From Pseudomonadota bacterium (GTDB lineage Bacteria > Verrucomicrobiota > Verrucomicrobiia > Chthoniobacterales > UBA6821): DNA of 40,591 bases. Below are positions 12,410-31,111 of the stretch, piece after piece. How positions within the stretch are numbered: the stretch's first letter is position 1; the number at the start of each line of letters is the position of its first letter. Under the pieces are notes generated by a model that saw only the letters and a program-made list of their open reading frames with translations, was not told where the DNA came from and searched no databases. Location: positions 1 through 40,591 of the forward strand of contig RFPR01000001.1 in NCBI GenBank assembly GCA_009928265.1, read 5' to 3'. A program made the translations under genes and the position numbers.

Positions 12410-12494
12410 GCCGGCGTGGCGGAATTGGCAGACGCGCCGGACTCAAAATCCGGTGAGGCAACTCGTGTCGGTTCGAACCCGACCGCCGGTACCA
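12410..12494 (+). tRNA. tRNA-Leu (anticodon CAA), long variable arm, encoded CCA
   Basis: Cloverleaf read by eye. Acceptor GCCGGCG/CGCCGGT, anticodon stem CCGGA/TCCGG with loop CTCAAAA, variable arm GAG-gcaa-CTC, T arm GTCGG-TTCGAAC-CCGAC, 3' ACCA. Confidence 0.9.
12439..12492 (+). repeat. attL: tRNA 3' portion repeated at the far island end (16-nt plus 28-nt identical blocks)
   Basis: GGACTCAAAATCCGGT (12439-12454) and GTGTCGGTTCGAACCCGACCGCCGGTAC (12465-12492) recur exactly at 31055-31070 and 31084-31111. Confidence 0.85.
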
Positions 12495-13781: not shown

Positions 13782-14168
13782 ATGCCTACTACCTCCTCCT
13801 CCGGTCTCAACTACAAGCTCACCGTCGTCTCCGTTAAGGAGGGCAAGAGCGAGAATGGTCCTTTCCTCAACATCCGTGCCACCACCCCTCTGAAGAAGAA
13901 GGACACCGAGATCACGGCGATGCTCTTCCTCAACCGGGGAAAGAAGGACGCTGAGAAGGCTCCCACCGCAGCCAGCCAGAAGGCTTTCGACGCCTTCTCA
14001 GGTGCCAAGGTAGGCGATGTCATCCAAGCCTACGGCGAGATTCGCCCAGTCTTGAACGAGACCACAGGCAAGGAGAGTGCCTACTTCGTCGTCCGCTCCC
14101 TCACCACTCCCCTCCCAAAGAGGGCTCCCAAGGCTAAGGCGGAACCTGCAGAGATGGCAGCCGCTTAA
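13782..14168 (+). CDS. hypothetical protein (128 aa); beta-rich core with a basic Lys/Ala/Pro tail, possibly an OB-like nucleic-acid binder
   Basis: Alternating beta-strand-like segments (KLTVVSVKEG, FLNIRATT, ITAMLFL, VIQAYGEIRP, YFVVRSL) and tail PKRAPKAKAEPAEMAAA. The fold assignment is a guess. Confidence 0.55.
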   Translation: MPTTSSSGLNYKLTVVSVKEGKSENGPFLNIRATTPLKKKDTEITAMLFLNRGKKDAEKAPTAASQKAFDAFSGAKVGDVIQAYGEIRPVLNETTGKESAYFVVRSLTTPLPKRAPKAKAEPAEMAAA

Positions 14169-14319: not shown

Positions 14320-14676
14320 ATGAAAAGCTACTGGGATGAACGACTTATCAACGAGACTATAAAAGGAAAATTAGAAAGTGTTAAAGCATGCATTCAAAGG
14401 GGGGCTAATATTAACGCTCAAAATGATGCAGGAAACACTGCACTCCACTACACTGCACGATTCGGGCGTTTAAACATATGTAAGCTTCTCCTAGAAAAGG
14501 GGGCAGATGTTCATATTAAAAATATGAAAGGAGACACCCCATATGATATGGCAGAACAGGGATTAGTGGTGCCGATCCACATGGACATTCTGAAAATAGC
14601 TAATCTTCTCAAAGCTCACATTAAGAATAATATCTCAAAGAAGATTAGGGATAAACTTAACGATATCGAGATTTAA
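14320..14676 (+). CDS. ankyrin-repeat protein (118 aa, about 2-3 repeats)
   Basis: Canonical ANK signature NAGNTALHYTARFGRLNICKLLLEKGADVHIKNMKGDTPYDMA. Strongly AT-rich relative to neighbours. Confidence 0.8.
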   Translation: MKSYWDERLINETIKGKLESVKACIQRGANINAQNDAGNTALHYTARFGRLNICKLLLEKGADVHIKNMKGDTPYDMAEQGLVVPIHMDILKIANLLKAHIKNNISKKIRDKLNDIEI

Positions 14677-14923: not shown

Positions 14924-16480
14924 TTATATGTTCCCTGGTCGGGTCGGATCCTTCGACTTCGGTAGGGTCATCTCCACTTCCTTCGCTAGCTCTTTGGCTT
15001 TGGATTTCATCCCCGGCACAAGCTGCAGGGCATTTGCGAAATGATGACCCATCCCAGAAATGAGGCTCTTGAAGGAAGCCTTCAGATCCTTCAGGGCTTT
15101 CTCGGCTTTCTCCCTAAGGGTTTTCTCCTTTGCCAGCTCTGCCTCGGCAGATTCCTTCGCCTTCACGGCATCCTCGATCTTTGAAACGGCAGACTTGTTG
15201 ATCTGCTGCAGCTCCTCCTTGCTTTTGAGCAAATACTCTAGGTCGTCAGCTTGCTTATCAATTACAGCATCCTTCTCAGTAATCTGGACATCTTTTACCT
15301 CTATTTTCTCCTCCAAGGTCGCAACCAGGGTCTTCAACCCTTCCAGCTCGTTCGCTAGCTCTTTCTCTCGCTCGCTCTTCTCTCTGACCAGATCTTCGGC
15401 TTGCTCCAACTTCTCTGCTAGGGAAGATTTCGCATCCTCAACCACCTGCTCGGCACTCTTCTTCAGCCCCAGAAGCCTAGATTCGTACCCTCGCTTCAAC
15501 CAAGCCACATAGTCGGTCCGGGCTCGACTGGCATCGATAGGAGCTACCGCTGCCAGTTTGGAGTTCATAAAATCATCCAAGGCTCGATGTAACCGGACAT
15601 CTCGGAGCCCGTCCTTAGGGTGCCTCAGCTCCTCTTTCTCCTTGTTCCACTCCACCACCTTCACAACCTCGGCACACAACTCCTGAATTTTGCTCTTATC
15701 CCAGCCAGCGTCAGCCAAGGCCTCCATATGACGGATCCAGGCAATAGTGCCCGAGCCCACCCCATAGTTCCTAAAGGGTACCCTCTCCCGGGCATACCTC
15801 GGCTCCTTCTGCTTGGAAATGTTCTCGTCGGTAATCGTTATCCCGCAGTGCCAAAGGTCATCATGTGCTTGGCCTGCGTCATTATGCTCGCCAACAAACA
15901 GGACTTTTCGCCCATAAATTTCCTCGAATAACTCTATTTTCAGGGCTCGGGCTTCAGCCATAATCTGCTCAACCTCCCCCTTTCGCCCACTGGCGAGCAT
16001 ATACTGCAAAGCACGAGAATGATCGGGTCTTAGGTCAATCGTCTCTCGCTTGATGTCGCTCGCAGGGTACCTGCCTATCTCCTTGCCCTCGGCATCTAAT
16101 ACCCTCTCTCTCAACTTCTCCGTTTTCCAATACTTTCGCTTCTCATTCGGGGGGGAGTGGTAGTGGTCATAAAACTTCATCGACTCCGTCAACTCCCTCT
16201 CCCATCCCTGACCCTCAACCAGCTCAAGTGATCCACCCCCCAAGGTCGTCTGGACCCTCCGGTAATTCCTCCCAGCAGGTAATCCATTCTCCCCTAAACT
16301 CGACTGCAGAAACGAAGACTTAAACGGTGCATACTTCCCATCTGCTAACTCGTGATACACCCACCTACCCTTCTCTTTTTTATCCTGCAACAACTTAAAC
16401 ATCTTAACATCATCCCGATGTTTTTCGGAATTAGCGTTGCCGTGGGCTATCGATTGATAAGTGGCTCTGCCTCTCTTCAT
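14924..16480 (-). CDS. putative diverged Mob/Pre (MobV-like) relaxase with a long C-terminal coiled coil
   Basis: 518 aa. N-terminal ...SEKHRDD... and FVGEHNDAGQAHDDLWH loosely resemble MobV motifs HxxR and HxDE..PHxH. The C-terminal ~180 aa are Glu/Lys-rich heptad-like. The function call is weak; the ORF itself is solid. Confidence 0.4.
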   Translation of the reverse strand: MKRGRATYQSIAHGNANSEKHRDDVKMFKLLQDKKEKGRWVYHELADGKYAPFKSSFLQSSLGENGLPAGRNYRRVQTTLGGGSLELVEGQGWERELTESMKFYDHYHSPPNEKRKYWKTEKLRERVLDAEGKEIGRYPASDIKRETIDLRPDHSRALQYMLASGRKGEVEQIMAEARALKIELFEEIYGRKVLFVGEHNDAGQAHDDLWHCGITITDENISKQKEPRYARERVPFRNYGVGSGTIAWIRHMEALADAGWDKSKIQELCAEVVKVVEWNKEKEELRHPKDGLRDVRLHRALDDFMNSKLAAVAPIDASRARTDYVAWLKRGYESRLLGLKKSAEQVVEDAKSSLAEKLEQAEDLVREKSEREKELANELEGLKTLVATLEEKIEVKDVQITEKDAVIDKQADDLEYLLKSKEELQQINKSAVSKIEDAVKAKESAEAELAKEKTLREKAEKALKDLKASFKSLISGMGHHFANALQLVPGMKSKAKELAKEVEMTLPKSKDPTRPGNI

Positions 16481-16634
16481 ACTAATTTTGTGGTACCTTA
16501 TACCCCTAAAGTCAAGGGTTTTCGATCTTTAAAAGATCTCTTTTTCTACCAGTTTGTTTTAACTAACCTCTTTGTAGTAGTTTCAAGTGCAATGGCCGCC
16601 AAAATTCCTACGTCATTTTATCGGCCAATTGCAC

Positions 16635-16848
16635 GGGAAAGTTGCACTTTCCCCCGCCCGTCGGCGGTTCCCCCTGGGGGGAGTTCCTCCCCCGAATTCC
16701 AAAGCGAATTCCCCCCTGATTTTTAAGGGTGGGAAGCCCCTTAAAAAGTAGGCTTTTACAGAGTAAAAGCGGACATCTTGCCCCCAGTGCTGGGCAAGAA
16801 AGAAGCAGCCCGGGGGGCGTCTCCATGGGTCCCCAAATCCCCCATGGA
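16635..16848. other. cluster of seven perfect 6-9-bp stem-loops (candidate oriT / single-strand origin / structured RNA)
   Basis: Hairpins at 16635-16653, 16677-16693, 16694-16711, 16721-16746, 16752-16770, 16776-16799 and 16822-16848. Confidence 0.6.
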
Positions 16849-16890
16849 AGCCCTAAAAAGTCTCCCAGAAGCGACCTACTAGCTCCCTAG

Positions 16891-17159
16891 TGTCTCCTTT
16901 TAGCTACCTAAAGTGTCTCCTTCTGGATCCTTTCTACTCCCTCGAAAACACCCTACTTACTACCTAGTTAATACCTGTTGTATCTTACTTACTACCTACT
17001 TACTACCTATCTAATACCTACTGGATCCTAAAATCCGATATTGTATCTATCTTTCTACCTACTGTCTCCTTTTGTATCCTTTTTGATCTATTTTTCTCTC
17101 ATGGCTCCTATTGTCTCTAATTTTCTCTAATCTTCCTATAATAGATACGAATTGTATCT
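16891..17159. repeat. G-poor iteron-like array of short direct repeats
   Basis: TGTCTCCTT x3 (16891, 16914, 17063). CTTACTACCTA x3 (16956, 16988, 16999) plus variants. TTGTATCT x3 plus a variant (16978, 17041, 17152; 17072). TAATACCT x2. CTGGATCCT x2. Confidence 0.7.
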
Positions 17160-17165
17160 TTTTAC

Positions 17166-17194
17166 TTGACATGAGTTATTCCACTAACCATAAT
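17166..17194 (+). promoter_or_regulatory. sigma70-like promoter, TTGACA-17 nt-CATAAT, 7 nt before the ATG
   Basis: TTGACA at 17166-17171 and CATAAT at 17189-17194. ATG at 17202 implies a leaderless or near-leaderless mRNA. Confidence 0.5.
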
Positions 17195-17201
17195 AAAACT
17201 T

Positions 17202-17870
17202 ATGGAAAGTTCAATGGAAAATCTTAATAATTCGCGTTCTGAGGCGGGTAGGGAACTTAGTGATGATGAGTTGATTTACCGATATTGCGAGACTTACGGA
17301 ATCAAATCCAGGGGTGCTCTCGTCCCTCATGCACCCGCCGTTTTTATCATCTCGAGACTCGAGGGGATCCGAGGTTGTGCTAAATACTTCTCGGAAACTC
17401 TCAATACTAAAGTCACTAAAAAACAAGTAGAAGGGATTCTTTTCAAGATCCGAAATAAACTTGTTAATGTCACCGAGGGGGACCTTCGCCTAGCTGCTCA
17501 GGCTCACCCTCGTGCGATGGCATACTTCCGGATGTACCCAGCCGCCCTAAGTCCTATGGTGAAAATGGAAGACGAGGGAGAGCTGGATGAAGGGGAGCTA
17601 ACTGGTGGAAATCTAGCTGGTGGAGGCGTGGCTGTGACTCCTAAAGAAATCAAGGAGGCAGGGAAGGAAACCGCCGGGCAGGATGCTCTGGATGGGCAAG
17701 ATGGGCAGGATGGTGGAGGGGAGGCTAGGAAGCCTCGATCTGCAGGAACCTCTGCAGGAACCTCTGCACCATCTAACCCTCCAAAAAGCACCTCTAAAGC
17801 TAGTGAACTAGCGAGGAACTTTGGGCAGCATTTTGCGGCAGCTAGTAGGAAGTTGCCAGTTAGACCTTGA
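17202..17870 (+). CDS. hypothetical protein, paralog 1 (shared ~60-aa domain plus Gly/Asp/Gln and Ser/Ala/Gly/Thr low-complexity tail)
   Basis: YCETYGIKSRGALVPHAPAVFIISRLEGIRGCAKYFSETL...KKQVEGILFKIRNK aligns with 18112 gene FFETYGVRGKGVLLPFAAQVYVIARYGGIRAATDYFSKKL...KRPIEDILNKIKRG. Confidence 0.65.
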   Translation: MESSMENLNNSRSEAGRELSDDELIYRYCETYGIKSRGALVPHAPAVFIISRLEGIRGCAKYFSETLNTKVTKKQVEGILFKIRNKLVNVTEGDLRLAAQAHPRAMAYFRMYPAALSPMVKMEDEGELDEGELTGGNLAGGGVAVTPKEIKEAGKETAGQDALDGQDGQDGGGEARKPRSAGTSAGTSAPSNPPKSTSKASELARNFGQHFAAASRKLPVRP

Positions 17871-18111: not shown

Positions 18112-18534
18112 ATGCAAGAAAATTCAGGATCCTCCGATTTAACTCCCAATCTAACTACTGGGTCGCCTTCAGTCGACCTATCTGCAGTTAAGGGTACGAG
18201 GTACAATAAGGACATTCCCACAGGGGATATCTCCGTCGAGGAGTTCTTTGAAACCTACGGGGTGCGTGGAAAGGGTGTCCTTCTACCCTTCGCAGCCCAG
18301 GTCTATGTTATCGCTCGCTATGGCGGGATAAGGGCCGCAACCGACTACTTCTCCAAGAAGCTCGGTAGGAAACTTAGTAAGCGTCCCATCGAAGATATCC
18401 TCAACAAGATCAAGCGGGGGGAAATAGTCCTCACCGAAGCAGAGATTCGAGAAGAGGCAAGCAAACATCCCTTTGCAGCCAAATTCTTCGAATGTGAGTT
18501 AGCTAGGTCGACGAAATTTTATGAGCCACTCTAA
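18112..18534 (+). CDS. hypothetical protein, paralog 2
   Basis: 140 aa. Conserved domain shared with the 17202 gene. Confidence 0.65.
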   Translation: MQENSGSSDLTPNLTTGSPSVDLSAVKGTRYNKDIPTGDISVEEFFETYGVRGKGVLLPFAAQVYVIARYGGIRAATDYFSKKLGRKLSKRPIEDILNKIKRGEIVLTEAEIREEASKHPFAAKFFECELARSTKFYEPL

Positions 18535-20627: not shown

Positions 20628-20713
20628 ATTTCGCTCCGTGCAGCGAAATCAGCCGCCGGAGCCGCTCGAGGCAACGGCAGGCTTCCCTCCGGCGGATGGA
20701 AGCAACGCCTTCC
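20628..20713 (+). repeat. ~85-nt multi-hairpin element, copy D
   Basis: ATTTCGC-TCCGTGCA-GCGAAAT, GCCG...CGGC, CTTCC-CTCCGGCGGAT-GGAAG-caacgc-CTTCC. Confidence 0.7.
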
Positions 20714-20851
20714 TGCACCCCTTTTAATCTCATGAAAACACCCAAGAAATCTCCACGGGTAGGACACTCTGTGTCTCCCAAACCTGCTAAGAAGAAGCTG
20801 CCAAATAAGCTCCCCAACCCCCCCAAAACAGCACACTCTCGTCATACACCT

Positions 20852-22633
20852 ATGCCTGAAGATTCCGCTCCCACCAAGATCAACTATGTCTCCCTTGTCT
20901 GGAGTATCGCAGAAATTCTGCGAGGTGACTTCAAGGCTCACCAGTACGGAGCAATCATCCTACCTTTCCTCGTGCTTCGTCGCTTGGAGTGCGTTCTCGA
21001 ACCTTCGCGGGCAAAGGTTCTCGATGCGTTGGCTTCCGTGCCAAAAGGTGCCGATGAGACAATTCGGGAGAAGCTCCTAAACCGTGCCTCCGGACATAAG
21101 TTCTCCAACACCAGCAAGTGGACCTTGGAGAAGATCAAGGGTGACCAAGCCCATCTCCTTGCCAACCTGAATGCCTATGTGAACGGCTTCTCGGCAAATG
21201 TACGGGATGTCCTCATCGACAAGTTCAAGTTCCCAACCCTTCTCGAAGCTCTGGACAAGGCGGATCTCCTCTACTCCCTAGTCGACAAGTTCGCCCAGGT
21301 GGATCTCCACCCAGACAGGGTCTCCAATATGGAGATGGGTTCCATCTTCGAGGAGCTCATCCGACGATTCGCTGAAGTCAGCAATGAAACGGCTGGAGAG
21401 CACTTCACCCCGAGGGATGTCGTGGAGCTTCTGGTCGATGTTCTCTTCATCTTCGACTCGGAAGTCCTCACCAAGAAGGGAGTTGTCCGTTCGATCTACG
21501 ATCCCACCGCAGGCACCGGGGGAATTCTCTCCGTCGCCCAAGAGGCTCTTCGCAAGCTCAACCCGGACGCTCAGCTAGTCCTCTTCGGACAAGAACTCAA
21601 CCCTGAATCCTACGCCATCTGTAAGAGCGATCTCATGATCAAGGGGCAGGATCCCGACAACATCGGCTTCGGAAACACCCTCAACGACGACAAGCACGAA
21701 GACCTTCAAGTCGACTACATGGGGGCAAACCCTCCGTATGGCGTGGACTGGGGAAAGATCAAGGATGACATCGAGGACGAACACGAGAAGCTCGGAATGA
21801 CTGGACGATTCGGTCCAGGTCTTCCTCGCGTCTCCGACGGTTCCCTTCTCTTCGTCCTGCAGATGATTTCCAAAATGAAGGACCCTGCCAAGGGCGAGGG
21901 GTCAAGGATCGCAGTAGTCTTGAGCGGATCCCCGCTCTTCACGGGCGGTGCAGGATCAGGAGAGTCGGAAATCCGCAGATACATCCTCGAGAATGACCTG
22001 CTGGAGACCATCATCGCTCTCCCCAGCTCCCTCTTCTACAACACCGGAATTGGCACCTACATTTGGGTCCTCTCCAACAAGAAGACCAAGGAACGCAAGG
22101 GCAAGGTGCAGCTCATCAACGCTGCAGAGATGTTTATCCCTATGAGAAAGAGCCTCGGGGACAAACGCAGGGAGATGACACCAGAACACCGCAAGGAAAT
22201 CCTCCGACTCATGGGTGAGTTCGACGAGTCACCCATCTCGAAAATCTTCAACTCAACCGATTTCGGCTACCGCCGAATCACTGTTGAACGCCCCTTGCTC
22301 GATGAGAAAGGTAAACCAGTCATCGGCACCAAGGGGAAGATGAAGGGCAAGCCCCTTCCCAATGCCGACTTGCGAGACACCGAGAATGTCCCCCTCACGG
22401 AATCGGTCGAGGAGTACTTCAAGCGTGAGGTCCTCCCTCATGTCCCCGATGCCTACATCGACAGCGAGAAGCGTGATGAACGGGACGGCGAGGCCGGGGT
22501 GGTTGGCTACGAGATCAACTTCAACCGCTATTTCTACCAGTTCACTCCTCCTAGAAAACTCGAAGATGTCCGAAAGGATGTCCGGGCGAAGGAACAAGCC
22601 ATCCTCAAACTCTTGGAGGACATCGGAGCATGA
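20852..22633 (+). CDS. hsdM: type I restriction-modification DNA methyltransferase subunit M
   Basis: HsdM N-domain (LVWSIAEILRGDFKAHQYGAIILPFLVLRRLE), SAM motif DPTAGTGGIL, catalytic GANPPYG. ATG 20852 preferred. Upstream in-frame ATGs at 20696 and 20732 would add a Lys/Pro-rich tail and overlap repeat copy D. Confidence 0.9.
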   Translation: MPEDSAPTKINYVSLVWSIAEILRGDFKAHQYGAIILPFLVLRRLECVLEPSRAKVLDALASVPKGADETIREKLLNRASGHKFSNTSKWTLEKIKGDQAHLLANLNAYVNGFSANVRDVLIDKFKFPTLLEALDKADLLYSLVDKFAQVDLHPDRVSNMEMGSIFEELIRRFAEVSNETAGEHFTPRDVVELLVDVLFIFDSEVLTKKGVVRSIYDPTAGTGGILSVAQEALRKLNPDAQLVLFGQELNPESYAICKSDLMIKGQDPDNIGFGNTLNDDKHEDLQVDYMGANPPYGVDWGKIKDDIEDEHEKLGMTGRFGPGLPRVSDGSLLFVLQMISKMKDPAKGEGSRIAVVLSGSPLFTGGAGSGESEIRRYILENDLLETIIALPSSLFYNTGIGTYIWVLSNKKTKERKGKVQLINAAEMFIPMRKSLGDKRREMTPEHRKEILRLMGEFDESPISKIFNSTDFGYRRITVERPLLDEKGKPVIGTKGKMKGKPLPNADLRDTENVPLTESVEEYFKREVLPHVPDAYIDSEKRDERDGEAGVVGYEINFNRYFYQFTPPRKLEDVRKDVRAKEQAILKLLEDIGA

Positions 22634-23901
22634 GCAGGGAGTTCAAGCCATACCCCAAGTACAAGGACTCGGGGGTAGAGTGGCTCGGGCAGGTTCCGGA
22701 AGGATGGGAGGTAACACCTCTCAAAAGAGCTGTCAGGCAAAGTGCCGATAAGTCAACTGACGGGTCCCTTCAGTACCTAGGGCTGGAAAATATCCTGCCA
22801 TGGACAGGCGTTATCACTACCGACTCTGATGCCAAATATTCAGACGACAGCTTGGGAATCGAGTTCCTAGAGGGAGATGTGCTCTTTGGGAAACTTCGCC
22901 CATACCTTGCGAAGGTAGCTCTGCCCTCATTTAACGGGCGATGCACCTCTGAGCTTTTGGTGCTTCGCCCAGAAAAACTAGATGGGAAATACCTCCGCTA
23001 TTTCCTCTCAACTCCTGGATTCATCGACCGGGTCAACTCAACGACATTCGGGGCACAAATGCCCCGAGCAAATTGGGAATCCATCGGGGGGTTACACACT
23101 CTGATTCCGGAGGATAAAGGCAAAGCCATTGCATCCTTCCTCGATCAGCAAACTTCGCAGATCGACGAGGTGATCAAAGCTACGGAGGAATCCATCGCTC
23201 TCCTACAGGAAGAGCGGAAAAGCATCATCTCCCATGCAGTCACCAAGGGACTAGATCCCAAGGTCAAACTCAAGGACTCGGGTATCGAGTGGCTCGGACA
23301 GATTCCGGAGCACTGGGAGGCCAAGAAGACAAGTTGGTATTTTACTGCTAAGAAGGGGAAGAACGCGGCACAGCTTACCAAGGAATACTGTGCAACGATT
23401 AGTGGGGACTACCCCGTCTACAGCGGGCAGACTGAAAATAACGGAGTGATGAGCAGCATCACCGAATACGAATTTGATGCGGGAGAGGACGGATGCCTCT
23501 TCTCCACAACGGTAGGCAGCCAAAAGGTCATGACCGTGATGCACATTAAGGGCAGATTCAGCCTATCACAGAACTGCATGATTATGCTCCCTACACAACG
23601 GGCTATTAATGTCAGGTACGCATTCTATCACTTTCAGCCTTTGTTTGAGTACGAGAAGAGCTTCATCCCATCCCACATGCAGGCTTCATTCCGTATGGAA
23701 GACTTCTACCAATACAGGTTAGCCCTTCCTCCTCTCGCAGAGCAGGAAGCCATCTCCTCCTACCTAGACGAGAAGACTAAGCGGATCGACTCACTCATCG
23801 CTGAAAAGGGGTCGCTCATCGAATCCCTCAGGGAGTATCGCAGCAGTCTGATCTTCGAAGCGGTAACCGGAAAAATCGACCTTCGGGAGGAAGCTGCATG
23901 A
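22630..23901 (+). CDS. hsdS: type I R-M specificity subunit S (two target-recognition domains)
   Basis: Duplicated YKDSGVEWLGQVPEGWE / LKDSGIEWLGQIPEHWE half-starts. Conserved helical spacers LQEERKSIISHAVTKGLD and LREYRSSLIFEAVTGKIDL. ATGA overlap with hsdM. Confidence 0.9.
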   Translation: MSREFKPYPKYKDSGVEWLGQVPEGWEVTPLKRAVRQSADKSTDGSLQYLGLENILPWTGVITTDSDAKYSDDSLGIEFLEGDVLFGKLRPYLAKVALPSFNGRCTSELLVLRPEKLDGKYLRYFLSTPGFIDRVNSTTFGAQMPRANWESIGGLHTLIPEDKGKAIASFLDQQTSQIDEVIKATEESIALLQEERKSIISHAVTKGLDPKVKLKDSGIEWLGQIPEHWEAKKTSWYFTAKKGKNAAQLTKEYCATISGDYPVYSGQTENNGVMSSITEYEFDAGEDGCLFSTTVGSQKVMTVMHIKGRFSLSQNCMIMLPTQRAINVRYAFYHFQPLFEYEKSFIPSHMQASFRMEDFYQYRLALPPLAEQEAISSYLDEKTKRIDSLIAEKGSLIESLREYRSSLIFEAVTGKIDLREEAA

Positions 23902-23941
23902 TCGCACTTCTCTTCGCACTAAAAGCGGGGATAACCAACTT

Positions 23942-26900
23942 ATGAGCACGCCAATTCACAAAGAGAAAAAGTTCGAGGAGGAGATCGAAGCAGTCCTCCT
24001 CAGCCGCAAGGGTGGTTACCTGCAGGGAAATCCCAAGAACTTCGATCCACGGCTCGGCTTTGATTGCACCGAACTGTTCACCTTCCTGAAAGGGACGCAG
24101 CCGAAGGAGTGGGCGAAGCTTGAGAAGAGCTACGGCGGCGAAGTGGAAGCCAAGGTTTCCTCCTACCTCCGCAGTGAGATCAACCGCAAGGGAACCATCG
24201 AAGTACTTCGTCAGGGCATCGTCGACCGGGGAGCCAAGCTCACTCTTGCCTTCATGCCTCCTTCCTCAGGTCTCAATCCTGTAGTGATCGAACAGTACAA
24301 AAGCAACAGGCTCACAATCACTCGGCAGGTTCCTTGCACAGTCGGGTCGAAGGAAACCATCGACACCGTTCTCATGGTCAACGGCATCCCAGTCGTTACC
24401 GTTGAACTCAAGACTCCGCTCACCGGACAAACCGTCACCAACGCAGTCTTTCAGTACAAAGACAGGGACCCCAATTCCCCCATCTTCGGCTTCAAGTCGG
24501 GTGCACTTGTGCACATGGCTGTCGATCCGGATGAGGTGATGATGACCACCAAGCTCGACAAGAAAGGGACTCGCTTCCTCCCATTCAACAAAGGCGACAA
24601 GGGAGGGAAGGGGAATCCTGAAAACCCCAAGGGCTACAAAACAGCGTACCTCTGGGAAGAGGTTCTGCAAAGGGATAGCCTCATGGACATCCTTGCCAAG
24701 TTCGTTCAGTCACAGACTGAGACGAAGCGTCTGCCCAACGGCTCCAAGGTCAAAGTCGAGAAGCTACTCTTCCCTAGGTATCACCAACTCGATTGCGTCC
24801 GTAAGTGCGCATCGCACGCTGCAGAGCACGGAGCAGGTCAAACCTACCTCATCCAGCACTCGGCAGGTTCGGGGAAGACCAATTCCATTGCCTGGCTCGC
24901 CCATAGGCTCACCACTCTCCACAACGCGAAGGACGAAACAGTCTTCGACAGCGTCATCGTTGTTACCGATCGAATCGTCCTCGATGACCAGCTGCAGGAC
25001 GCCATCGCCCAATTCGAGCACAAGCACGGAGTGGTTGAAGCCATCAAGGGAAGCGAGGGCTCCAAGAGTGCGAAGCTCGCTGAAGCCCTTACTGGCGGGA
25101 AGAAGATCATCATCGTCACCATTCAGTCCTTCGGGTTTGTCCTTGAGCAGATCGGATCCATCCCTAACCGCAGGTATGCCGTTATCGTGGACGAAGCCCA
25201 CTCCTCGCAGACCGGAGAGTCGGCTACAAAGATGCGACAGGCACTTGGATCCTCGGATGAAGACCTAGCTGCTGCAGCTAAGGAGCAGGAGGAAGAGGAC
25301 AAGAAGGCTGAAGCCAAGGACGATGAAACGGACGCAGCCGTCCTCAAAGTTCTCAAGGCTCGCAAGCGTCAGCCCAACATGAGTTTCTTCGGCTTCACGG
25401 CTACGCCCAAAGCCAAAACCCTCGAATACTTCGGCACAGTTGGTAAGGACAGAAAGCCTCACCCGTTTCACCTGTACTCCATGCGACAGGCGATTGAGGA
25501 AGGATTCATCCTCGATGTCCTGAAGAACTACACCACCTACGAAACCTACTGGCGTCTCGCCTCTTCCAATTCAGTAGATCCGGAAGTCGAGAAGAAGAAA
25601 GCTTCACGAGCGGCTGTTCGCTATGTGCAGCTCCACCCCTACAACATCGCTCAGAAGGTCGAGATCATCCTAGAGCACTATGTGAACTTCACCTCCAAGC
25701 AGATCGGAGGGAAGGCGAAGGCGATGGTTGTTACCAGCAGTCGCAAAGCTGCAGTCAGGTACAAAGAGGCATTCGACAAGATCCTCGTCAAAAAGAAGAT
25801 CAAAGGTGTCAAAGCCATCGTTGCCTTCTCCGGGGAAGTCCAAGACGAGGGGAAGAGTCACACCGAGCAGAGCATGAACGGCTTCTCCGGTCGTCAGATC
25901 CCAGAGAAGTTCGAGTCGGATGAGTACCAAGTCCTCCTGGTTGCCGACAAATTCCAAACAGGCTTCGATCAGCCTTATCTGCACACTCTCTTTGTCGACA
26001 AGCGCCTCGACGGCGTTCAGGCGGTGCAGACCCTCTCCCGGGTCAATCGTACCTGCCCCCTTAAGGAAGACACCTTCGTTTTGGACTTCGTCAACAACGC
26101 CGACGACATCAAGAAAGCCTTCCTGCCGTACTACCAGGCAACGGAAGTCTCGGAAGTCACCGATCCCAATGTGCTCTATCGGCTCAAGGATCAGATCATG
26201 GATCGAGGTATCATCAACAAGGATGACATCGAGGGGGTTGCCAAGATCGCCTTCAAACCTGCAGGAGAAGCCGGGGCAAACGACCAAGGCAAGATTCATG
26301 CCCTCATCGACCCAGCAGTTACTCGTTACAAAGAGAAGCTGGATGAATCTGAGCAACGCGAGTTCGCCGGCGATCTCCAATCCTTCCTTCGCACCTACGC
26401 ATTCCTCGCTCAGCTCATCGACTTTGAAGATACGGACCTTGAAAAACTCTACGCCTACGGGAAGTTCCTCGCTCGAAAACTCCCAAGGACCCAAGGACGC
26501 AACCTCACCCTCGACGATGAAGTTCGGCTTACCTTCTACCGCACCCAGAAGGTGTTTGAAGGTAGCCTCTCCCTTGGAGCAACAGACGCCGGGACCGTAA
26601 AAGGTATCGGTGATGCTCCCAAGAAAGGCGGTGCTGGTGGAACGGTCGTTCGCCTCTCCACCATTATCGATGTCCTCAACCAACGATTCGGTGCTGACCT
26701 CTCCCAAGAAGACCAGCTCCTCTTCGATGCCATCGAGGGGGACATGGCGAGAGACCATGAACTCCGTACCCAAGCTCTCAACAACGATCTGAAAAACTTC
26801 GCCTTCCCAGCCAAGGAGAAGATCAGCGGTGCATTCCTAGAACGGACCGAGAAAAACCAAGGGCTATTCACTCGCTACCTCGCAGATGAGGCCTTCCGCA

Positions 26901-26980
26901 ATGTGATCGAGCAAGTAATGGCTCAATCCCTCTATGACCGCCTCCGCAGAGAAGCCGGGGAAGCTGAGAAGATCGCATGA
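23942..26980 (+). CDS. hsdR: type I restriction endonuclease subunit R
   Basis: 1012 aa. N-terminal nuclease-type region, helicase motif I QHSAGSGKT, motif II VIVDEAHSSQ, later SF2 motifs (FGFTATP, LLVADKFQTGFDQP, RVNR). Confidence 0.9.
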   Translation: MSTPIHKEKKFEEEIEAVLLSRKGGYLQGNPKNFDPRLGFDCTELFTFLKGTQPKEWAKLEKSYGGEVEAKVSSYLRSEINRKGTIEVLRQGIVDRGAKLTLAFMPPSSGLNPVVIEQYKSNRLTITRQVPCTVGSKETIDTVLMVNGIPVVTVELKTPLTGQTVTNAVFQYKDRDPNSPIFGFKSGALVHMAVDPDEVMMTTKLDKKGTRFLPFNKGDKGGKGNPENPKGYKTAYLWEEVLQRDSLMDILAKFVQSQTETKRLPNGSKVKVEKLLFPRYHQLDCVRKCASHAAEHGAGQTYLIQHSAGSGKTNSIAWLAHRLTTLHNAKDETVFDSVIVVTDRIVLDDQLQDAIAQFEHKHGVVEAIKGSEGSKSAKLAEALTGGKKIIIVTIQSFGFVLEQIGSIPNRRYAVIVDEAHSSQTGESATKMRQALGSSDEDLAAAAKEQEEEDKKAEAKDDETDAAVLKVLKARKRQPNMSFFGFTATPKAKTLEYFGTVGKDRKPHPFHLYSMRQAIEEGFILDVLKNYTTYETYWRLASSNSVDPEVEKKKASRAAVRYVQLHPYNIAQKVEIILEHYVNFTSKQIGGKAKAMVVTSSRKAAVRYKEAFDKILVKKKIKGVKAIVAFSGEVQDEGKSHTEQSMNGFSGRQIPEKFESDEYQVLLVADKFQTGFDQPYLHTLFVDKRLDGVQAVQTLSRVNRTCPLKEDTFVLDFVNNADDIKKAFLPYYQATEVSEVTDPNVLYRLKDQIMDRGIINKDDIEGVAKIAFKPAGEAGANDQGKIHALIDPAVTRYKEKLDESEQREFAGDLQSFLRTYAFLAQLIDFEDTDLEKLYAYGKFLARKLPRTQGRNLTLDDEVRLTFYRTQKVFEGSLSLGATDAGTVKGIGDAPKKGGAGGTVVRLSTIIDVLNQRFGADLSQEDQLLFDAIEGDMARDHELRTQALNNDLKNFAFPAKEKISGAFLERTEKNQGLFTRYLADEAFRNVIEQVMAQSLYDRLRREAGEAEKIA

Positions 26981-28967: not shown

Positions 28968-29540
28968 ATGAAGATAGGATACGCACGAGTTAGCACGAAG
29001 GATCAGGACACAACAGCTCAGGAAGAAGCCCTTAAAGCTGCAGGGTGTGAAAAGATATACCATGAGATCGCTTCAGGCGGGAAATGGGAGAGGAAGGAAC
29101 TACACCGAATGCTCGACATGCTCAGACCAGGGGATGTCGTCATTGTCTGGAAGTTGGACAGGCTCTCCAGATCGTTGCGGGACCTCCTCTCAATCATCGA
29201 CACCTTCGCCAAACTCGATGTCGGCTTCGTCAGCCTCACGGAATCGGTGGATACGACATCAGCAGCAGGTCGGATGCTCCTCCAAATCATCGGCTCCTTC
29301 GGGGAATTCGAGAGAAACCTCATCCGTGAGAGGACCTATGCAGGTATCGCTAGAGCCAAGGCTCTAGGCAAGCATCTCGGTAGACCTTCCAAGCTCTCAG
29401 CTGAACAACGGGCTGAGGTCCTCCGTAGCATCAAGGCAGGAGAGAAGTCTCAGGCAGAATGGGCTCGCCTGTTCAATGTCGCCCCCTCGGCAATTTCTCG
29501 GCTCGTCGCCAAGGAGGCACTCACAAAACTTCTGAAGTGA
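28968..29540 (+). CDS. small serine recombinase (resolvase/invertase family)
   Basis: MKIGYARVSTKDQ catalytic-Ser motif, DVVIVWKLDRLSRS, GEFERNLIRERT, C-terminal HTH (SQAEWARLFNVAPSAISRL). Confidence 0.9.
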   Translation: MKIGYARVSTKDQDTTAQEEALKAAGCEKIYHEIASGGKWERKELHRMLDMLRPGDVVIVWKLDRLSRSLRDLLSIIDTFAKLDVGFVSLTESVDTTSAAGRMLLQIIGSFGEFERNLIRERTYAGIARAKALGKHLGRPSKLSAEQRAEVLRSIKAGEKSQAEWARLFNVAPSAISRLVAKEALTKLLK

Positions 29541-29543
29541 TTC

Positions 29544-29738
29544 CTAGGTGCGTCTCTTACTAGGAATAAGGAGCAGAGGCAGGTTCACGACCGCCACAAC
29601 CGCAGTCCAAATCAGCACAGCAGCTACACCAATGATCCCAGCGGCTATCTGGATCAGCCCAATCAGGAAATTGACCACTCCCTTCAGGAGCCAAGTCACC
29701 AAGAACACGCCCAATAGAAGTTCAATGGCAAGGCTCAT
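29544..29738 (-). CDS. small two-TM hydrophobic protein (64 aa) coupled to the integrase gene
   Basis: Start overlaps the integrase stop (ATGA on the minus strand). Almost entirely hydrophobic, with a basic C-terminus SKRRT. Confidence 0.45.
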   Translation of the reverse strand: MSLAIELLLGVFLVTWLLKGVVNFLIGLIQIAAGIIGVAAVLIWTAVVAVVNLPLLLIPSKRRT

Positions 29739-30985
29739 AGGGTTCCTTCCGGTGCATCGTCGGGTAGGGGATCCTTATCACACAGGCTCTCCACATAGGC
29801 GGGAAGCAGTCTCCAGAACTCCGCACAATCCTCCTCGGTGACGGCGTCGACATAGTTGCTCCTCACTACGGAAGGGCTATTTCCCATCTCGTAGCTGGTC
29901 AGTCCTTCATCTTTCTTCCATGCCAGATGATACGACCCATAGAGGTGTCTCAGGGCATTTTGAGGCCAGGGGGTAATCCCTGCAGCATGGGCAATGGTCT
30001 TCATCTCAGCATACCAAGCAGCGGGGCGGTTGGCTCTCTCTGGTCTTGCTGAGAAGACCAGCTCGTCCTTCTTGCCTTTCTTGCAGAGCAGCAACCATCC
30101 CTTCAGCGGCGGAGTAATGGTGATACTTCGACGGCGTCCGGTTTTGGAAAATCCTGCCTGGACGATGATCGTCGAGCCAACATCGCCCCATGGGATCTTG
30201 AACAGTTCCTCGTTGCGAATGCCTGAGAAGGCCTTCATCGCCAAGCTCGCCAACATCTTCGGAGCAATCTGCTGGGTCGTCCAAAGCAACGAAGCCACCT
30301 GCTCAGGGGTGAAGATGACCTTTTGCGATGCAACCTTGCGGGGAGCCTTTATCCCATCGAGCGGGTTCTCCTTGATCCAACGCTGAGCAACTGCGTCGTT
30401 GAACAGGATGTTCAGATACCTCCTCCGCTTCGCCCGCTGGGAAGGGGATGGGTTGTTTCCCCTCCCATCCTTGGCAGAGAGGATCTGCAGGATCCGATCT
30501 CGGTCGAAGTCGCCAATGGACTCCTTCTCCATACCGTCGAAGTAGAAATCGTACTTCTCCGCCATGTCCTTGAGGTGCCTAGCTCCGCAGCCTTCCGTCT
30601 TTTTCAAATCCAAAAGCTTCTCCACGGCATCCTCTACGCTTGGAGCCTTGGATGATGGTCTACGCTCCAGCCAGAAATCCACAACCTCCCGGAGCGGGGT
30701 AGGGGAGATTCTCGCCAAAGCAACTCGGATCTCAGCCATGTCCAAGGTCGACACCCCCAGCTCCTTCGCCTTTTCGAGCTCGCCTGCAGTCTTTTTCTTG
30801 AGTTCGGCAATGTAGCTCAATGCCTTCTCGTGCGAGGAAAAAAACTTCCGGATGATTTCACGCCCGGTGAATTTCTTCCCCACACGAACGACCCAGCGGT
30901 TACGATCTTTGCGGAGGGATACCCCGTGCGGTAGCTTGGGCTCCTTGGGTTTTTGGGGGCGTTTCATGCCCCAATCCAAGGCCAT
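29735..30985 (-). CDS. int: tyrosine site-specific integrase
   Basis: SAM-like N-domain. Catalytic-domain landmarks FSGIRNEEL (Arg), ALRHLYGSY (His-x-x-Arg region), GNSPSVVRSNY (Tyr). Adjacent to attR. Alternative ATG at 30967. Confidence 0.85.
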   Translation of the reverse strand: MALDWGMKRPQKPKEPKLPHGVSLRKDRNRWVVRVGKKFTGREIIRKFFSSHEKALSYIAELKKKTAGELEKAKELGVSTLDMAEIRVALARISPTPLREVVDFWLERRPSSKAPSVEDAVEKLLDLKKTEGCGARHLKDMAEKYDFYFDGMEKESIGDFDRDRILQILSAKDGRGNNPSPSQRAKRRRYLNILFNDAVAQRWIKENPLDGIKAPRKVASQKVIFTPEQVASLLWTTQQIAPKMLASLAMKAFSGIRNEELFKIPWGDVGSTIIVQAGFSKTGRRRSITITPPLKGWLLLCKKGKKDELVFSARPERANRPAAWYAEMKTIAHAAGITPWPQNALRHLYGSYHLAWKKDEGLTSYEMGNSPSVVRSNYVDAVTEEDCAEFWRLLPAYVESLCDKDPLPDDAPEGTL

Positions 30986-31054: not shown

Positions 31055-31111
31055 GGACTCAAAATCCGGTATCCTCTAAAGATGTGTCGGTTCGAACCCG
31101 ACCGCCGGTAC
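31055..31111 (+). repeat. attR: partial tRNA-Leu copy (anticodon loop to acceptor 3' strand) with a different variable arm
   Basis: 16-nt and 28-nt blocks identical to the tRNA, separated by ATCCTCTAAAGAT instead of GAGGCAACTC. No 5' half, no CCA. Confidence 0.85.

Follow-up and report, generated by a model that had tools for sequence, protein, structure and literature searches.

What is served by a dense run of perfect inverted repeats lying in the non-coding gap between two divergent orphan genes? The question is raised by a 40,591-nucleotide (nt) stretch of DNA from the phylum Verrucomicrobiota (contig RFPR01000001.1, positions 1 to 40,591; hereafter, the window), in which an earlier note, made from the letters alone, had described seven perfect hairpins within 16635-16848, upstream of a gene that it called Mob-like. 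According to our analysis, this hairpin array is a string of ~270 bases forming about ten stem-loops, the shape of which is maintained by compensating mutations in related mobile islands of Verrucomicrobiota. The stems are strand-biased, unique in the window and always linked, inside integrative islands, to a family of orphan proteins represented here by the 518-amino-acid (aa) product of the neighboring gene (14924-16480, minus strand). As for the function, we see about an even chance that the array is an origin of transfer (oriT) or a rolling-circle-type nick region with accompanying single-strand signals, used by the 518-aa protein as a putative new nickase with an HxDx4HxD motif.

A hairpin array maintained by compensating mutations

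The divergent intergenic region measures 720 bp and contains, in plus-strand order, ~100 bp beside the start codon of the 518-aa gene, the hairpin array (16584-16848), a set of short direct repeats and a strong promoter-like site for a gene encoding a 222-aa protein. All seven of the perfect inverted repeats reported in the earlier note are present within 16635-16848, at the positions that it gave: hairpin 1 (16635-16653, GGGAAAGT/ACTTTCCC), hairpin 2 (16677-16693, GGGGGAG/CTCCCCC, with the minus-strand form GGGGGAG-gaa-CTCCCCC), hairpin 3 (16694-16711, GAATTC/GAATTC with an n6 loop), hairpin 4 (TTTTTAAGGG/CCCTTAAAAA with an n8 loop), hairpin 5 (16752-16770, GCTTTTAC/GTAAAAGC, with tct as its minus-strand loop), hairpin 6 (16776-16799, TCTTGCCC/GGGCAAGA with an n8 loop), and hairpin 7 (16822-16848, TCCATGGG/CCCATGGA with an n11 loop). 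Hairpin 4 proved to be one pair longer than had been claimed, with a 10-bp stem spanning 16720-16747. Two extra stems were found beyond this list: one, at 16654-16667, reads CCGCC-n4-GGCGG, and the other, at 16587-16634, is long and imperfect. Both lie toward the low-coordinate side and, combined with hairpin 1, make up the region of widest conservation. The original boundaries enclose the seven hairpins but leave out this region as a whole (16582-16678) as well as the iteron array (16852-17160).

The claim that such a density of stems is beyond chance was borne out. Six of the seven hairpins have stems of at least 7 bp, compared to a mean of 0.34 in 2,000 dinucleotide-preserving shuffles of the same 214 nt, the highest count in any single shuffle also being six. 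This stretch is the densest 214 nt for stems of at least 7 bp across the 40.6-kb window, which holds 47 such hairpins overall. When folded as single-stranded DNA (ssDNA), 16580-16852 forms a string of ten hairpins, with an energy of -70.7 kcal/mol (z = -6.4) on the minus strand and of -68.2 kcal/mol (z = -7.3) on the plus strand. The energies of both strands were matched by none of 200 shuffles.

Relatives of the 518-aa protein were collected in 34 loci, and sequences lying 5' of the gene were aligned across relatives on the gene-sense strand, which corresponds to the minus strand of the window. A conserved core emerged, common even to relatives with proteins that are 31 to 38% identical. It is present on the sense strand, 60 to 150 nt 5' of the start codon, in every locus that has a full-length homologue and enough upstream sequence. 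The core is composed, in order, of a CAG-GGGGGAACC box, stem H1, GGGG, stem H2, stem H4 (3' arm GTGCGCGGATAT), and an invariant (A/G)CTTG(A/C)A; a long class of cores, and only this class, has two additional small stems between H2 and H4, one of them with a GGA triloop. From the earlier list, only hairpin 1, which corresponds to H2, falls inside the core.

In the window, the core is opened by the GGGGGAACC box (16666-16674, minus strand), the last two bases of which form the first pairs of H1. Conservation of this box averages 1.56 bits, with the commonest base found in 90% of the sequences. H1 (16654-16667, minus strand, CCGCC-gacg-GGCGG) is formed by Watson-Crick pairs in 86 of 86 cases among 17 non-redundant relatives, with three or four pair types at three positions, the arms having been picked by hand in each sequence and anchored on the flanking conserved boxes. 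The variants of its arm include CCGCC, CCGTC, CCAGC, CCAAC, CCACC, CCGGC, CCCAC, and others, and three of the five pairs show compensatory changes in the model-made alignment described below. H2 (16635-16653, minus strand, GGGAAAGT-gca-ACTTTCCC) carries a GNA triloop. Its arms covary as GGGAGC/GCTCCC, GGGAGGC/GCCTCCC, GGGTGC/GCACCC, and GGGACG/CGTCCC, and its loops, where they are 3 nt long, read GCA, GTA, GAA, or GGA.

The last stem, H4, is a long imperfect hairpin (16587-16634, minus strand, GTGCAAT-T-GGCCGATAAAAT ... ATTTTGGCGGCCATTGCAC) with G·T wobbles on the minus strand and compensatory changes in 8 of its 17 pairs. Across relatives, its 3' arm GTGCGCGGATAT is better conserved in sequence (1.66 bits) than its 5' arm (1.34 bits). 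In a metagenomic copy that is 99% identical (L002:1188-1307, compared with 16556-16682 of the window), the few substitutions cluster in the 5' arm of H4, which changes from CGATAAAAT to CGCCAAAAT with two pairs restored and one lost, and the 3' arm is unchanged. Directly 3' of this stem (...GCAC-TTG-AAAC) lies a CTTG box (16584-16587, minus strand), a candidate nick or recognition site that is invariant in 20 of 20 aligned cores. The locus of a distant homologue, an 829-aa protein (L034), likewise has an inverted repeat and then CGCTTGAA, ~55 nt before the start codon. The CTTG box was also considered as a -35 promoter element, a reading that was rejected because no conserved -10 element occurs 16 to 19 nt downstream across loci. 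A REP-like family of repeated palindromes was rejected as well, the stems being mutually different and the model described below finding one copy per locus. As side observations on the distant locus (L034:3040-3170), the repeat preceding CGCTTGAA is a 9-bp inverted repeat, CCCCCCTGC...GCAGGGGGG, the locus carries Dnd cargo, a weak covariance-model match (13.5 bits) occurs there in the opposite orientation, and ACACCT repeats are found further upstream.

Differences in loop length defeated RNAalifold on the raw MAFFT alignment, and we therefore used a hand-written five-helix structure to build a covariance model, R1, from twelve long-class sequences. R1 finds exactly one sense-strand site per locus. 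In the window, the sequence of which was outside the training set, its match at 16582-16678 (minus strand, 33.8 bits, E = 2e-8 within the window) is unique in 40.6 kb on both strands. The untrained sites of the short class, defined below, scored 45 bits in L022, 45 bits in L016 and L024, 34 bits in the window, 32 bits in L001, and 27 bits in L029. In the model alignment of 17 sequences, 89.6% of the cells are paired, compared to 77.1% in column shuffles; this percentage is inflated because the alignment is fitted to the structure, and the compensatory counts (21 of 34 pairs, 65 cells) and the analysis by hand agree with it. None of 500 shuffles reached any of five structure measures on this alignment, and sliding the pair partners by one to three columns lowered pairing to 31 to 53%. 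The compensatory changes establish that the stems are selected for structure.

The distal hairpins were then followed in the short class, which comprises the window, L001, L024 (L016 being of the same type), L022, and L029, with protein identities of 36 to 52%. Hairpin 4 is kept in all five loci. Its arms, TTAAGGG/CCCTTAA in the window, are compensated as TTGGGGG/CCCCCAA in L001, TCTAGGG/CCCTAGA in L022, and TTTAGGG/CCCTAAA in L029, and L024 has a bulged stem. Reading hairpin 4 as a terminator was rejected, as the stem is followed by an A-run and not a T-run. On the minus strand, our scan flagged hairpin 5 as terminator-like, if weakly so. L001 has an identical copy of this hairpin, and its place is taken by CTATTT/AAATAG in L022, CATATCTC/GAGATATG in L024, and CAGTTTAC/GTAAATTG, with a G·T wobble on the minus strand, in L029. 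The aligned counterpart of hairpin 6 is ATCTAGC/GCTAGAT in L029, and L001 and L022 have weaker versions of it. An unaltered hairpin 2 is present in L029; at the site of hairpin 3, other mini-hairpins are found, namely, GC-GAA-GC (L024), GCAC-taa-GTGC (L022), or GCC-gaga-GGC (L029); and hairpins 2 and 3 are lost together in L001 by a ~40-nt deletion. Hairpin 7 is kept only in the 99% identical copy L002, other loci having different hairpins at its place, and long-class loci have other hairpins upstream of their cores. Given that the distal hairpins compensate in the short class and that the long-class loci have hairpins of their own, the whole array is under selection for structure. Conservation and covariation of the stems in related elements was the check that the earlier note had named beforehand; compensatory changes are found in the core and in the distal hairpins alike, in support of a functional single-strand structure.

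Two open reading frames (ORFs) that overlap the array (16352-16726, plus strand; 16608-16826, minus strand) exist mechanically, and their translations are, as the earlier note had said, Pro/Gly readings of low complexity. A conserved box, CAGGGGGAACCGCCGACGGGCGGGGG, is translated as "QGEPPTGGG" in the second of them and in a spurious N-terminal extension of the homologue P0003. The earlier note had dismissed both ORFs, rightly in view of the stem-compensating substitutions, the indels that are not multiples of three, and the misreading of the box as "GEPPTGGG" in unrelated gene calls. The public proteins P0002, P0003, and P0009 all start too early, with the CAGGGGGAACCGCCGACGGGCGGGGG box read as coding.

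Folding strand, neighboring protein and proposed nicking

Perfect palindromes can fold on either strand, and the strand information is consequently held by imperfections and loops. In folds computed without G-U pairs, the 1x1 mismatches within helices of the cores are G/T in 13 cases and A/C in 3, and these numbers rise to 27 and 6 when 300 nt upstream are added. The model alignment gave 17 G·T and 7 A·C, where composition predicts a share of 48% (p = 0.02). Among 28 perfect triloop hairpins on the sense strand of the cores, 14 have GNA loops and 2 have TNC loops, compared to 12 and 21, respectively, among 206 triloop hairpins elsewhere in the window. On account of the excess of G·T over A·C and of GNA triloops, the gene-sense strand, i.e., the minus strand of the window, is taken to be the folded strand. 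Loops of 3 nt are unusually frequent in the array, in which no GNRA or UNCG tetraloops were seen, and d(GNA) triloops are known to form exceptionally stable DNA mini-hairpins (PMC3201870, PMC13037366).

The 518-aa protein comprises an N-terminal alpha/beta domain (residues 1 to 335) and a long coiled coil. A word-indexed search returned 32 relatives, the only organism name attached to them being a Verrucomicrobia metagenome-assembled genome (MAG), and an exhaustive profile search of 1.84 billion representatives extended the family to 95 representative clusters. Its invariant motifs are DLRPDHSRA and EH199xD201SGQxH206xD208LWH, and residues R145, T147, P152, H199, H206, R231, R250, D294, and D302 persist across the deep family. 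In the AlphaFold2 model of the domain (predicted local distance difference test score [pLDDT], 89; predicted template modeling score [pTM], 0.88), the H199-D208 motif folds into a beta-hairpin that borders a large antiparallel sheet. The spacing H199-x-D201-x4-H206-x-D208 is that of the metal motif of MobV relaxases (VHxDExxPHxH in MobV, EHxDSGQxHxD here), without the Glu, the Pro, and the last His, which is replaced by Asp. This likeness to MobV is a resemblance and not evidence of membership. MobV motif I, HxxR, is absent; H13 and H21 are invariant, but H21 stands in KH21RDD without Arg at +3, whereas H22xxR25 is invariant in MobV.

From these features, we propose that, after excision of the island, the 518-aa protein would recognize the core on the gene-sense (minus) strand, i.e., the GGGGGAACC box, H1, H2, H4, and CTTG, with a divalent metal bound by His199, His206, and Asp208. 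The protein would nick the DNA beside the last stem, most plausibly at or near CTTG, and the strand would be unwound 5' to 3' with the 518-aa gene first. The outcome would be either transfer via a helper conjugation system, the array being the oriT of a mobilizable island, or rolling-circle copying of the excised circle. The hairpins, located 5' of the nick, would be exposed last, and the core could then refold and let the enzyme reseal the strand. Distal hairpins 2 to 7 may provide signals for complementary-strand priming or other single-strand functions, and the iterons may bind the 222-aa protein as an accessory factor, a regulator, or a partition factor.

Relaxase termination at oriT has this arrangement, with stems that lie 5' of the nick and are exposed last, and so do single-strand origins upstream of rolling-circle nicks. 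A nickase site would fit the conservation of the H4 3' arm and CTTG while the 5' arm drifts, the restriction of the L002 changes to the 5' arm, and the inverted repeat followed by CGCTTGAA in L034, and a mobilizable island would fit the presence of an integrase and attachment (att) sites together with the lack of mating-pore genes. Inverted repeats beside a conserved nick sequence on one strand, a feature of oriTs, have their counterpart in H1, H2, and H4 followed by CTTG, and the strand-specific folded non-coding region found upstream of rolling-circle nick regions has its counterpart in the array 5' of CTTG. The place of a cognate relaxase encoded in cis would be taken by the adjacent 518-aa protein, which has HxDx4HxD and matches no relaxase family.

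Several known systems share part of this organization. Known oriTs span from tens up to hundreds of base pairs and combine inverted repeats with a nick site (PMC11701681), and the oriT of plasmid pMV158, which acts by means of hairpins, sits immediately upstream of mobM and overlaps its promoters (PMC5863519). Similarly, the hairpin region described here falls in the promoter region of the gene for the putative enzyme, ~80 to 170 nt upstream of that gene. The pMV158 relaxase MobM needs its site to be single-stranded or extruded (PMC5863519), and the array would likewise act as a folded single strand. The 518-aa protein also resembles MobM in having an N-terminal domain, which is the catalytic one in MobM, followed by a coiled-coil tail. 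Unlike MOBV relaxases, however, it has no match to Mob_Pre (PF01076), lacks HxxR with the catalytic His, and has Asp instead of His as the third metal ligand. The array further differs from the pMV158 oriT in having about ten separate stems over ~270 nt, where pMV158 has three overlapping inverted repeats in ~40 nt, and in its host phylum, Verrucomicrobiota instead of Firmicutes. As with the oriT complexes of TrwC (R388) and TraI (F), a conserved single-stranded stretch, here on the strand that would be nicked, is preceded on its 5' side by an adjoining hairpin, the nick-proximal arm of which is constrained in sequence, and the predicted model places a His cluster on a beta-hairpin of a large antiparallel sheet. 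In contrast to these relaxases, the 518-aa protein has no conserved N-terminal Tyr and no helicase domain, and no type IV secretion system (T4SS) or coupling-protein genes are found nearby.

Rolling-circle origins are similar in that iterons and a hairpin/nick region are located upstream of the initiator gene, with a folded non-coding stretch 5' of what would be the nick here; in pMV158-type plasmids, this folded stretch 5' of the nick is exposed last. Unlike rolling-circle replication initiators (Reps), which have an HUH motif with a downstream Tyr and match Pfam, the 518-aa protein has no such features, and it resides in an 18.6-kb integrated island with a partition gene and not in a small plasmid. 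In the intergenic region of Ff phages and in G4- and Frpo-type signals, several independent hairpins on one strand, within a few hundred nucleotides, serve as origin and for priming. The array is likewise a string of independent one-strand hairpins in a non-coding stretch, but the island has no inovirus genes, and no sequence or Rfam similarity to these regions was found. An inovirus was rejected for want of phage genes. Overall, the element would work most like an oriT or a rolling-circle origin, yet it fits no known family, given that the protein has no relaxase or Rep profile match and lacks MobV motif I, that its fold match with TrwC is non-significant, and that the DNA has no match in PLSDB. 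We infer an origin-type hairpin region serving an undescribed initiator family.

A number of results weigh against nicking by this protein at an oriT-like site. The "Mob-like" label that the earlier note gave to 14924-16480 found no homology support: scans against Pfam, NCBIfam, PHROGs, and PADLOC returned coiled-coil noise only, profile searches against PDB sequences returned coiled-coil proteins only, and tblastn of the domain against 72,556 PLSDB plasmids and 50,697 INPHARED phages gave no match. The 32 family members have no relaxase, Rep, or other family match in Pfam (E <= 1), and ten distant relatives gave nothing in Pfam (E <= 0.01), their clusters being named no more than "hypothetical protein." For direct comparison, six real MobV relaxases, among them MobM of pMV158, were taken from PLSDB via a MobM N-terminus, which proved to be 100% identical to that of pMV158. 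Alignment with their N-termini by hhalign gave a probability of 0.04% (E = 0.9), and the sole stretch aligned was "LFEEIYG..EHxDSGQxH" with "YFAENYG..VHxDExTPH." Foldseek searches of the PDB with full-length and domain-only models placed three TrwC-oriT complexes at the top (1qx0, 1zm5, and 1osb), with scores that are not significant (E = 0.03 to 0.09; template modeling score, 0.18 to 0.20), and a Foldseek search of BFVD gave nothing. As catalytic nucleophile, the sequence offers candidates only, i.e., H13, H21, Y160 (conserved in at least 90%), and Y324 and Y332 (both invariant in the close family). At the DNA level, the intergenic region (16481-17201) had no blastn match among the 72,556 PLSDB plasmids. 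T4SS and coupling-protein domains were not seen in ORF scans of any island, and a helper element must be assumed. With p at about 0.02, the comparison of G·T with A·C is a modest one; the G-richness of the strand confounds it in part, and the model on which it draws tolerates G-U. Finally, about ten stem-loops with up to five covarying core helices look more elaborate than a typical oriT and resemble a structured RNA.

Alternative readings of the array

Such an RNA is the rival that survives best, even though we consider it unlikely. The minus strand would then encode a structured non-coding RNA, which could be a long leader that regulates the 518-aa gene in cis or an independent RNA of ~100 to 300 nt partnering the 518-aa protein. 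Several covarying helices joined by short conserved single-stranded linkers are the signature used to find structured RNAs, the strand that folds is also the sense strand for the gene downstream, and the element always stands beside the same protein, as in known RNA-protein systems. G·U pairs are tolerated (17 cells), but they make up only ~3% of the pairs, and the loops are mostly of the 3-nt GNA type, a hallmark of DNA mini-hairpins (PMC3201870), and not GNRA or UNCG. The earlier note had suggested searching Rfam. At gathering thresholds, only a tRNA was found in the whole window, and at permissive E-values, the best match in 16400-17250 scored 17 bits (E >= 1) against thresholds of 40 to 50; the search thus favors the DNA options of that note and gives no backing to its RNA option.

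The promoters bear on the same question. A weak promoter-like site on the minus strand (GAGACA-17-TACAAT, 17068-17040) lies upstream of the array and could drive such an RNA, but a candidate promoter of the 518-aa gene itself lies downstream of the core, as TTGACT-19-CAAAAT-4-ATG in the window (16481-16530) and TTGACT-19-TACAAT-4-ATG in L024 (L024:4355-4400). This promoter was read by eye, as its 19-nt spacer is outside the range of 16 to 18 nt covered by our sigma-70 scan, which does not report it; its geometry suggests a leaderless mRNA. In L008, ~45 nt separate the core from a terminator-like hairpin on its upstream side, an interval that holds no promoter-like site, and the scan found no promoter-like sites in L018 or L024. 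Library scans and Foldseek also revealed no recognizable RNA-binding, reverse-transcriptase, primase, helicase, or winged-helix Rep signature in the 518-aa protein, and analogies with retrons, bridge RNAs, and omega-RNAs were rejected, as it lacks reverse-transcriptase, DEDD, and TnpB domains. The strand-specific GNA triloops, the many 3-nt loops, the lack of an Rfam match, the downstream promoter candidate, and the location in an integrative island favor the DNA side, and we lean toward DNA, holding it to be roughly twice as probable as RNA. Accordingly, of the four options raised in the earlier note, those involving DNA (oriT, single-strand origin, and single-strand promoter) are leaned to, with structured RNA kept as a rival.

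Less likely still is a vegetative origin of the excised island that works without nicking, in which an initiator, the 222-aa or the 518-aa protein, would bind iterons and the hairpins would prime synthesis once the duplex opens. Iteron-like short direct repeats (16852-17160, repeat families D1 to D5) do lie directly beside the hairpins, as they do in every relative, with repeats specific to each element. In the window, CTACCTA occurs five times, GTCTCC four times, and TGTATC four times, against an expectation of at most 0.1 at the window-wide rate. The G content of this array is 9.5% on the plus strand, leaving the folding strand nearly free of C, so that no G-C stems are possible. At the same position, the repeat unit is GGAGACCGNAGGTCG in L001, GGAGGGTGGAAC in L028, TGTGGT in L024, and ACACCT in L034. 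The iteron array is most simply read, from its adjacency and its element-specific repeats, as the binding site of the fast-evolving 222-aa orphan protein. We also observed that L028:7650-7750 holds at least eight head-to-tail copies of the 12-nt GGAGGGTGGAAC directly upstream of the core, with a 156-aa ORF called over them.

Further points in favor of a vegetative origin are a ParA-like gene in the same operon, which suggests an episomal phase, and the failure of ORF scans to find any other initiator candidate in the island. However, all strong stems of the array favor one strand, unlike the single-strand initiation (ssi) sites of the IncQ type. In the IncQ vegetative origin (oriV), to which the array would be similar under this reading, iterons are accompanied by the ssiA and ssiB hairpins, and the ssi sites are on opposite strands. 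In addition, the most conserved part of the array goes with the 518-aa gene instead of the iterons, none of the primase, helicase, or winged-helix Rep signatures mentioned above is seen in the 518-aa protein, and a conserved box beside a stem suits a cleavage site better than a priming site.

It is very improbable that the stems are operator palindromes acting in duplex DNA, bound by dimeric regulators of the two divergent promoters without any single-strand folding. Palindromes in a divergent promoter region are classic operators, and relaxosome proteins of known systems also autoregulate at oriT (PMC5863519). Nevertheless, operators conserve sequence, whereas here both arms change jointly in ten different palindromes, and neither loop length, nor the strand bias of GNA loops, nor the preference for G·T over A·C would have a meaning in a duplex. 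Chance low complexity, or true coding by the two ORFs that exist mechanically in this region rich in G and C runs, deserves practically no credence, being refuted by the shuffles (6 hairpins against ~0.3), by compensatory conservation across elements with proteins 31 to 52% identical, and by indels that change the loops by 3, 4, or 5 nt, together with a ~40-nt deletion, all of which break any frame, the translations being of low complexity besides.

Island context and significance

The array belongs to an island of 18.6 kb bounded by a 28-bp exact direct repeat, GTGTCGGTTCGAACCCGACCGCCGGTAC. The left att repeat (12465-12492, plus strand) lies inside the 3' end of a tRNA-Leu(CAA) gene (12410-12494), after which a stretch of lower G+C begins, and the right att repeat (31084-31111, plus strand) lies just past a tyrosine integrase gene (29735-30985, minus strand; PHROG phrog_1 at 2e-23, with a weak Phage_integrase match). 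The left part of the island comprises four small ORFs, including one for an ankyrin-repeat protein, followed by the 518-aa gene and the 720-bp intergenic region. Beyond the latter, a divergent operon encodes the 222-aa protein, 140-aa and 119-aa ORFs, a ParA-like 295-aa protein, and a 227-aa ORF, and the island also contains a type I restriction-modification (R-M) system (20696-26980) and a resolvase (28968-29540). Scans of island ORFs with Pfam and PHROG detected neither conjugation genes nor structural genes of phages, and no hit to a known HUH Rep family was obtained with Pfam, NCBIfam, or PHROGs. The integration module of an integrative mobilizable element is thus present, with att repeats, the left one in tRNA-Leu, and a tyrosine integrase; an oriT and a relaxase of its own would be supplied by the array and the 518-aa protein under the nicking mechanism proposed above. 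The presence of a ParA-like gene points to some persistence of the excised circle as well.

The 222-aa protein (17202-17870, plus strand), a divergent conserved partner of the 518-aa protein and a candidate iteron-binding or accessory factor, is preceded by a promoter-like site (17166-17194, plus strand) that reads TTGACA-17-CATAAT, with 11 of 12 matches, and ends 8 nt before the ATG. It had no family match in Pfam, NCBIfam, PHROG, and PADLOC scans, and a search of 5.8 billion clustered proteins yielded only four relatives, all orphans. The N-terminal ~110 aa of the 222-aa protein are 67 to 72% identical in L001 and L029 and 38% identical in L024, and this orphan domain recurs, as a paralogue, in the 140-aa ORF (18112-18534). 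The C-terminus is of low complexity and rich in G, D, S, and A. The best-conserved backbone protein is encoded by a 128-aa ORF (13782-14168, plus strand) downstream of the 518-aa gene, which is 84% identical in L001 and 70% identical in L029 and has no family match. If the strand were transferred as proposed, it would be the template of this ORF and of the ankyrin-repeat ORF (14320-14676), in the manner of leading-region genes.

The relatives occur in comparable settings. The named genomes are Verrucomicrobiota MAGs (Terrimicrobiaceae, Chthoniobacter, and Haloferula), and their loci are islands with tyrosine or large serine recombinases, none of which has conjugation genes. Their defense cargo includes type I and type III R-M, SIR2-HerA, Mrr, AAA_15/DUF4276, and Dnd, and the rhodanese gene of the window is also the neighbor of the L022 island. 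Part of the family shares a backbone that comprises the 222-aa N-terminal domain and the ParA-like, 227-aa, and 128-aa proteins. In the closest divergent relative (L001:2200-4387), there are two ParA-like genes (285 and 289 aa), whose products are 51% and 48% identical to the 295-aa protein of the window. L001, an 18,141-bp contig of near-island size, may be a complete excised or episomal copy.

A broader claim about the protein is held more tentatively, as possible and clearly short of even odds: the 518-aa family may constitute a new enzyme class that processes single-stranded nucleic acids, either without relation to HUH relaxases or similar to them by convergence alone, with a His-His-Asp site and an unusually elaborate folded substrate of three to five helices, and may form the core mobility or replication module of undescribed defense-carrying islands. 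If this is true and the substrate is DNA, these proteins would in effect form a new MOB or Rep family having an origin type of their own; with an RNA substrate, they would represent a new protein-RNA partnership. Because the substrate strand, its boundaries, and candidate catalytic residues are specified, a clear biochemical experiment is possible.

Mobile elements of Verrucomicrobiota are almost uncharacterized, and standard tools, which classify elements by relaxase and Rep families, would call these islands non-mobile. The cis element can now be recognized by a covariance model, two conserved boxes, and its strand, and it is tied to an orphan family of ~95 clusters outside the public profile libraries. 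The pair formed by this element and its protein recurs as the backbone of islands with type I and type III R-M, Dnd, SIR2-HerA, Mrr, and other defense cargo. The strand-specific excess of GNA triloops may serve more generally as a marker that distinguishes ssDNA signals from RNA structures in raw sequence. If the 518-aa protein is indeed a nickase, it would represent a new initiator family with a new type of origin, and would give a handle for island annotation and genetic tools in this phylum.

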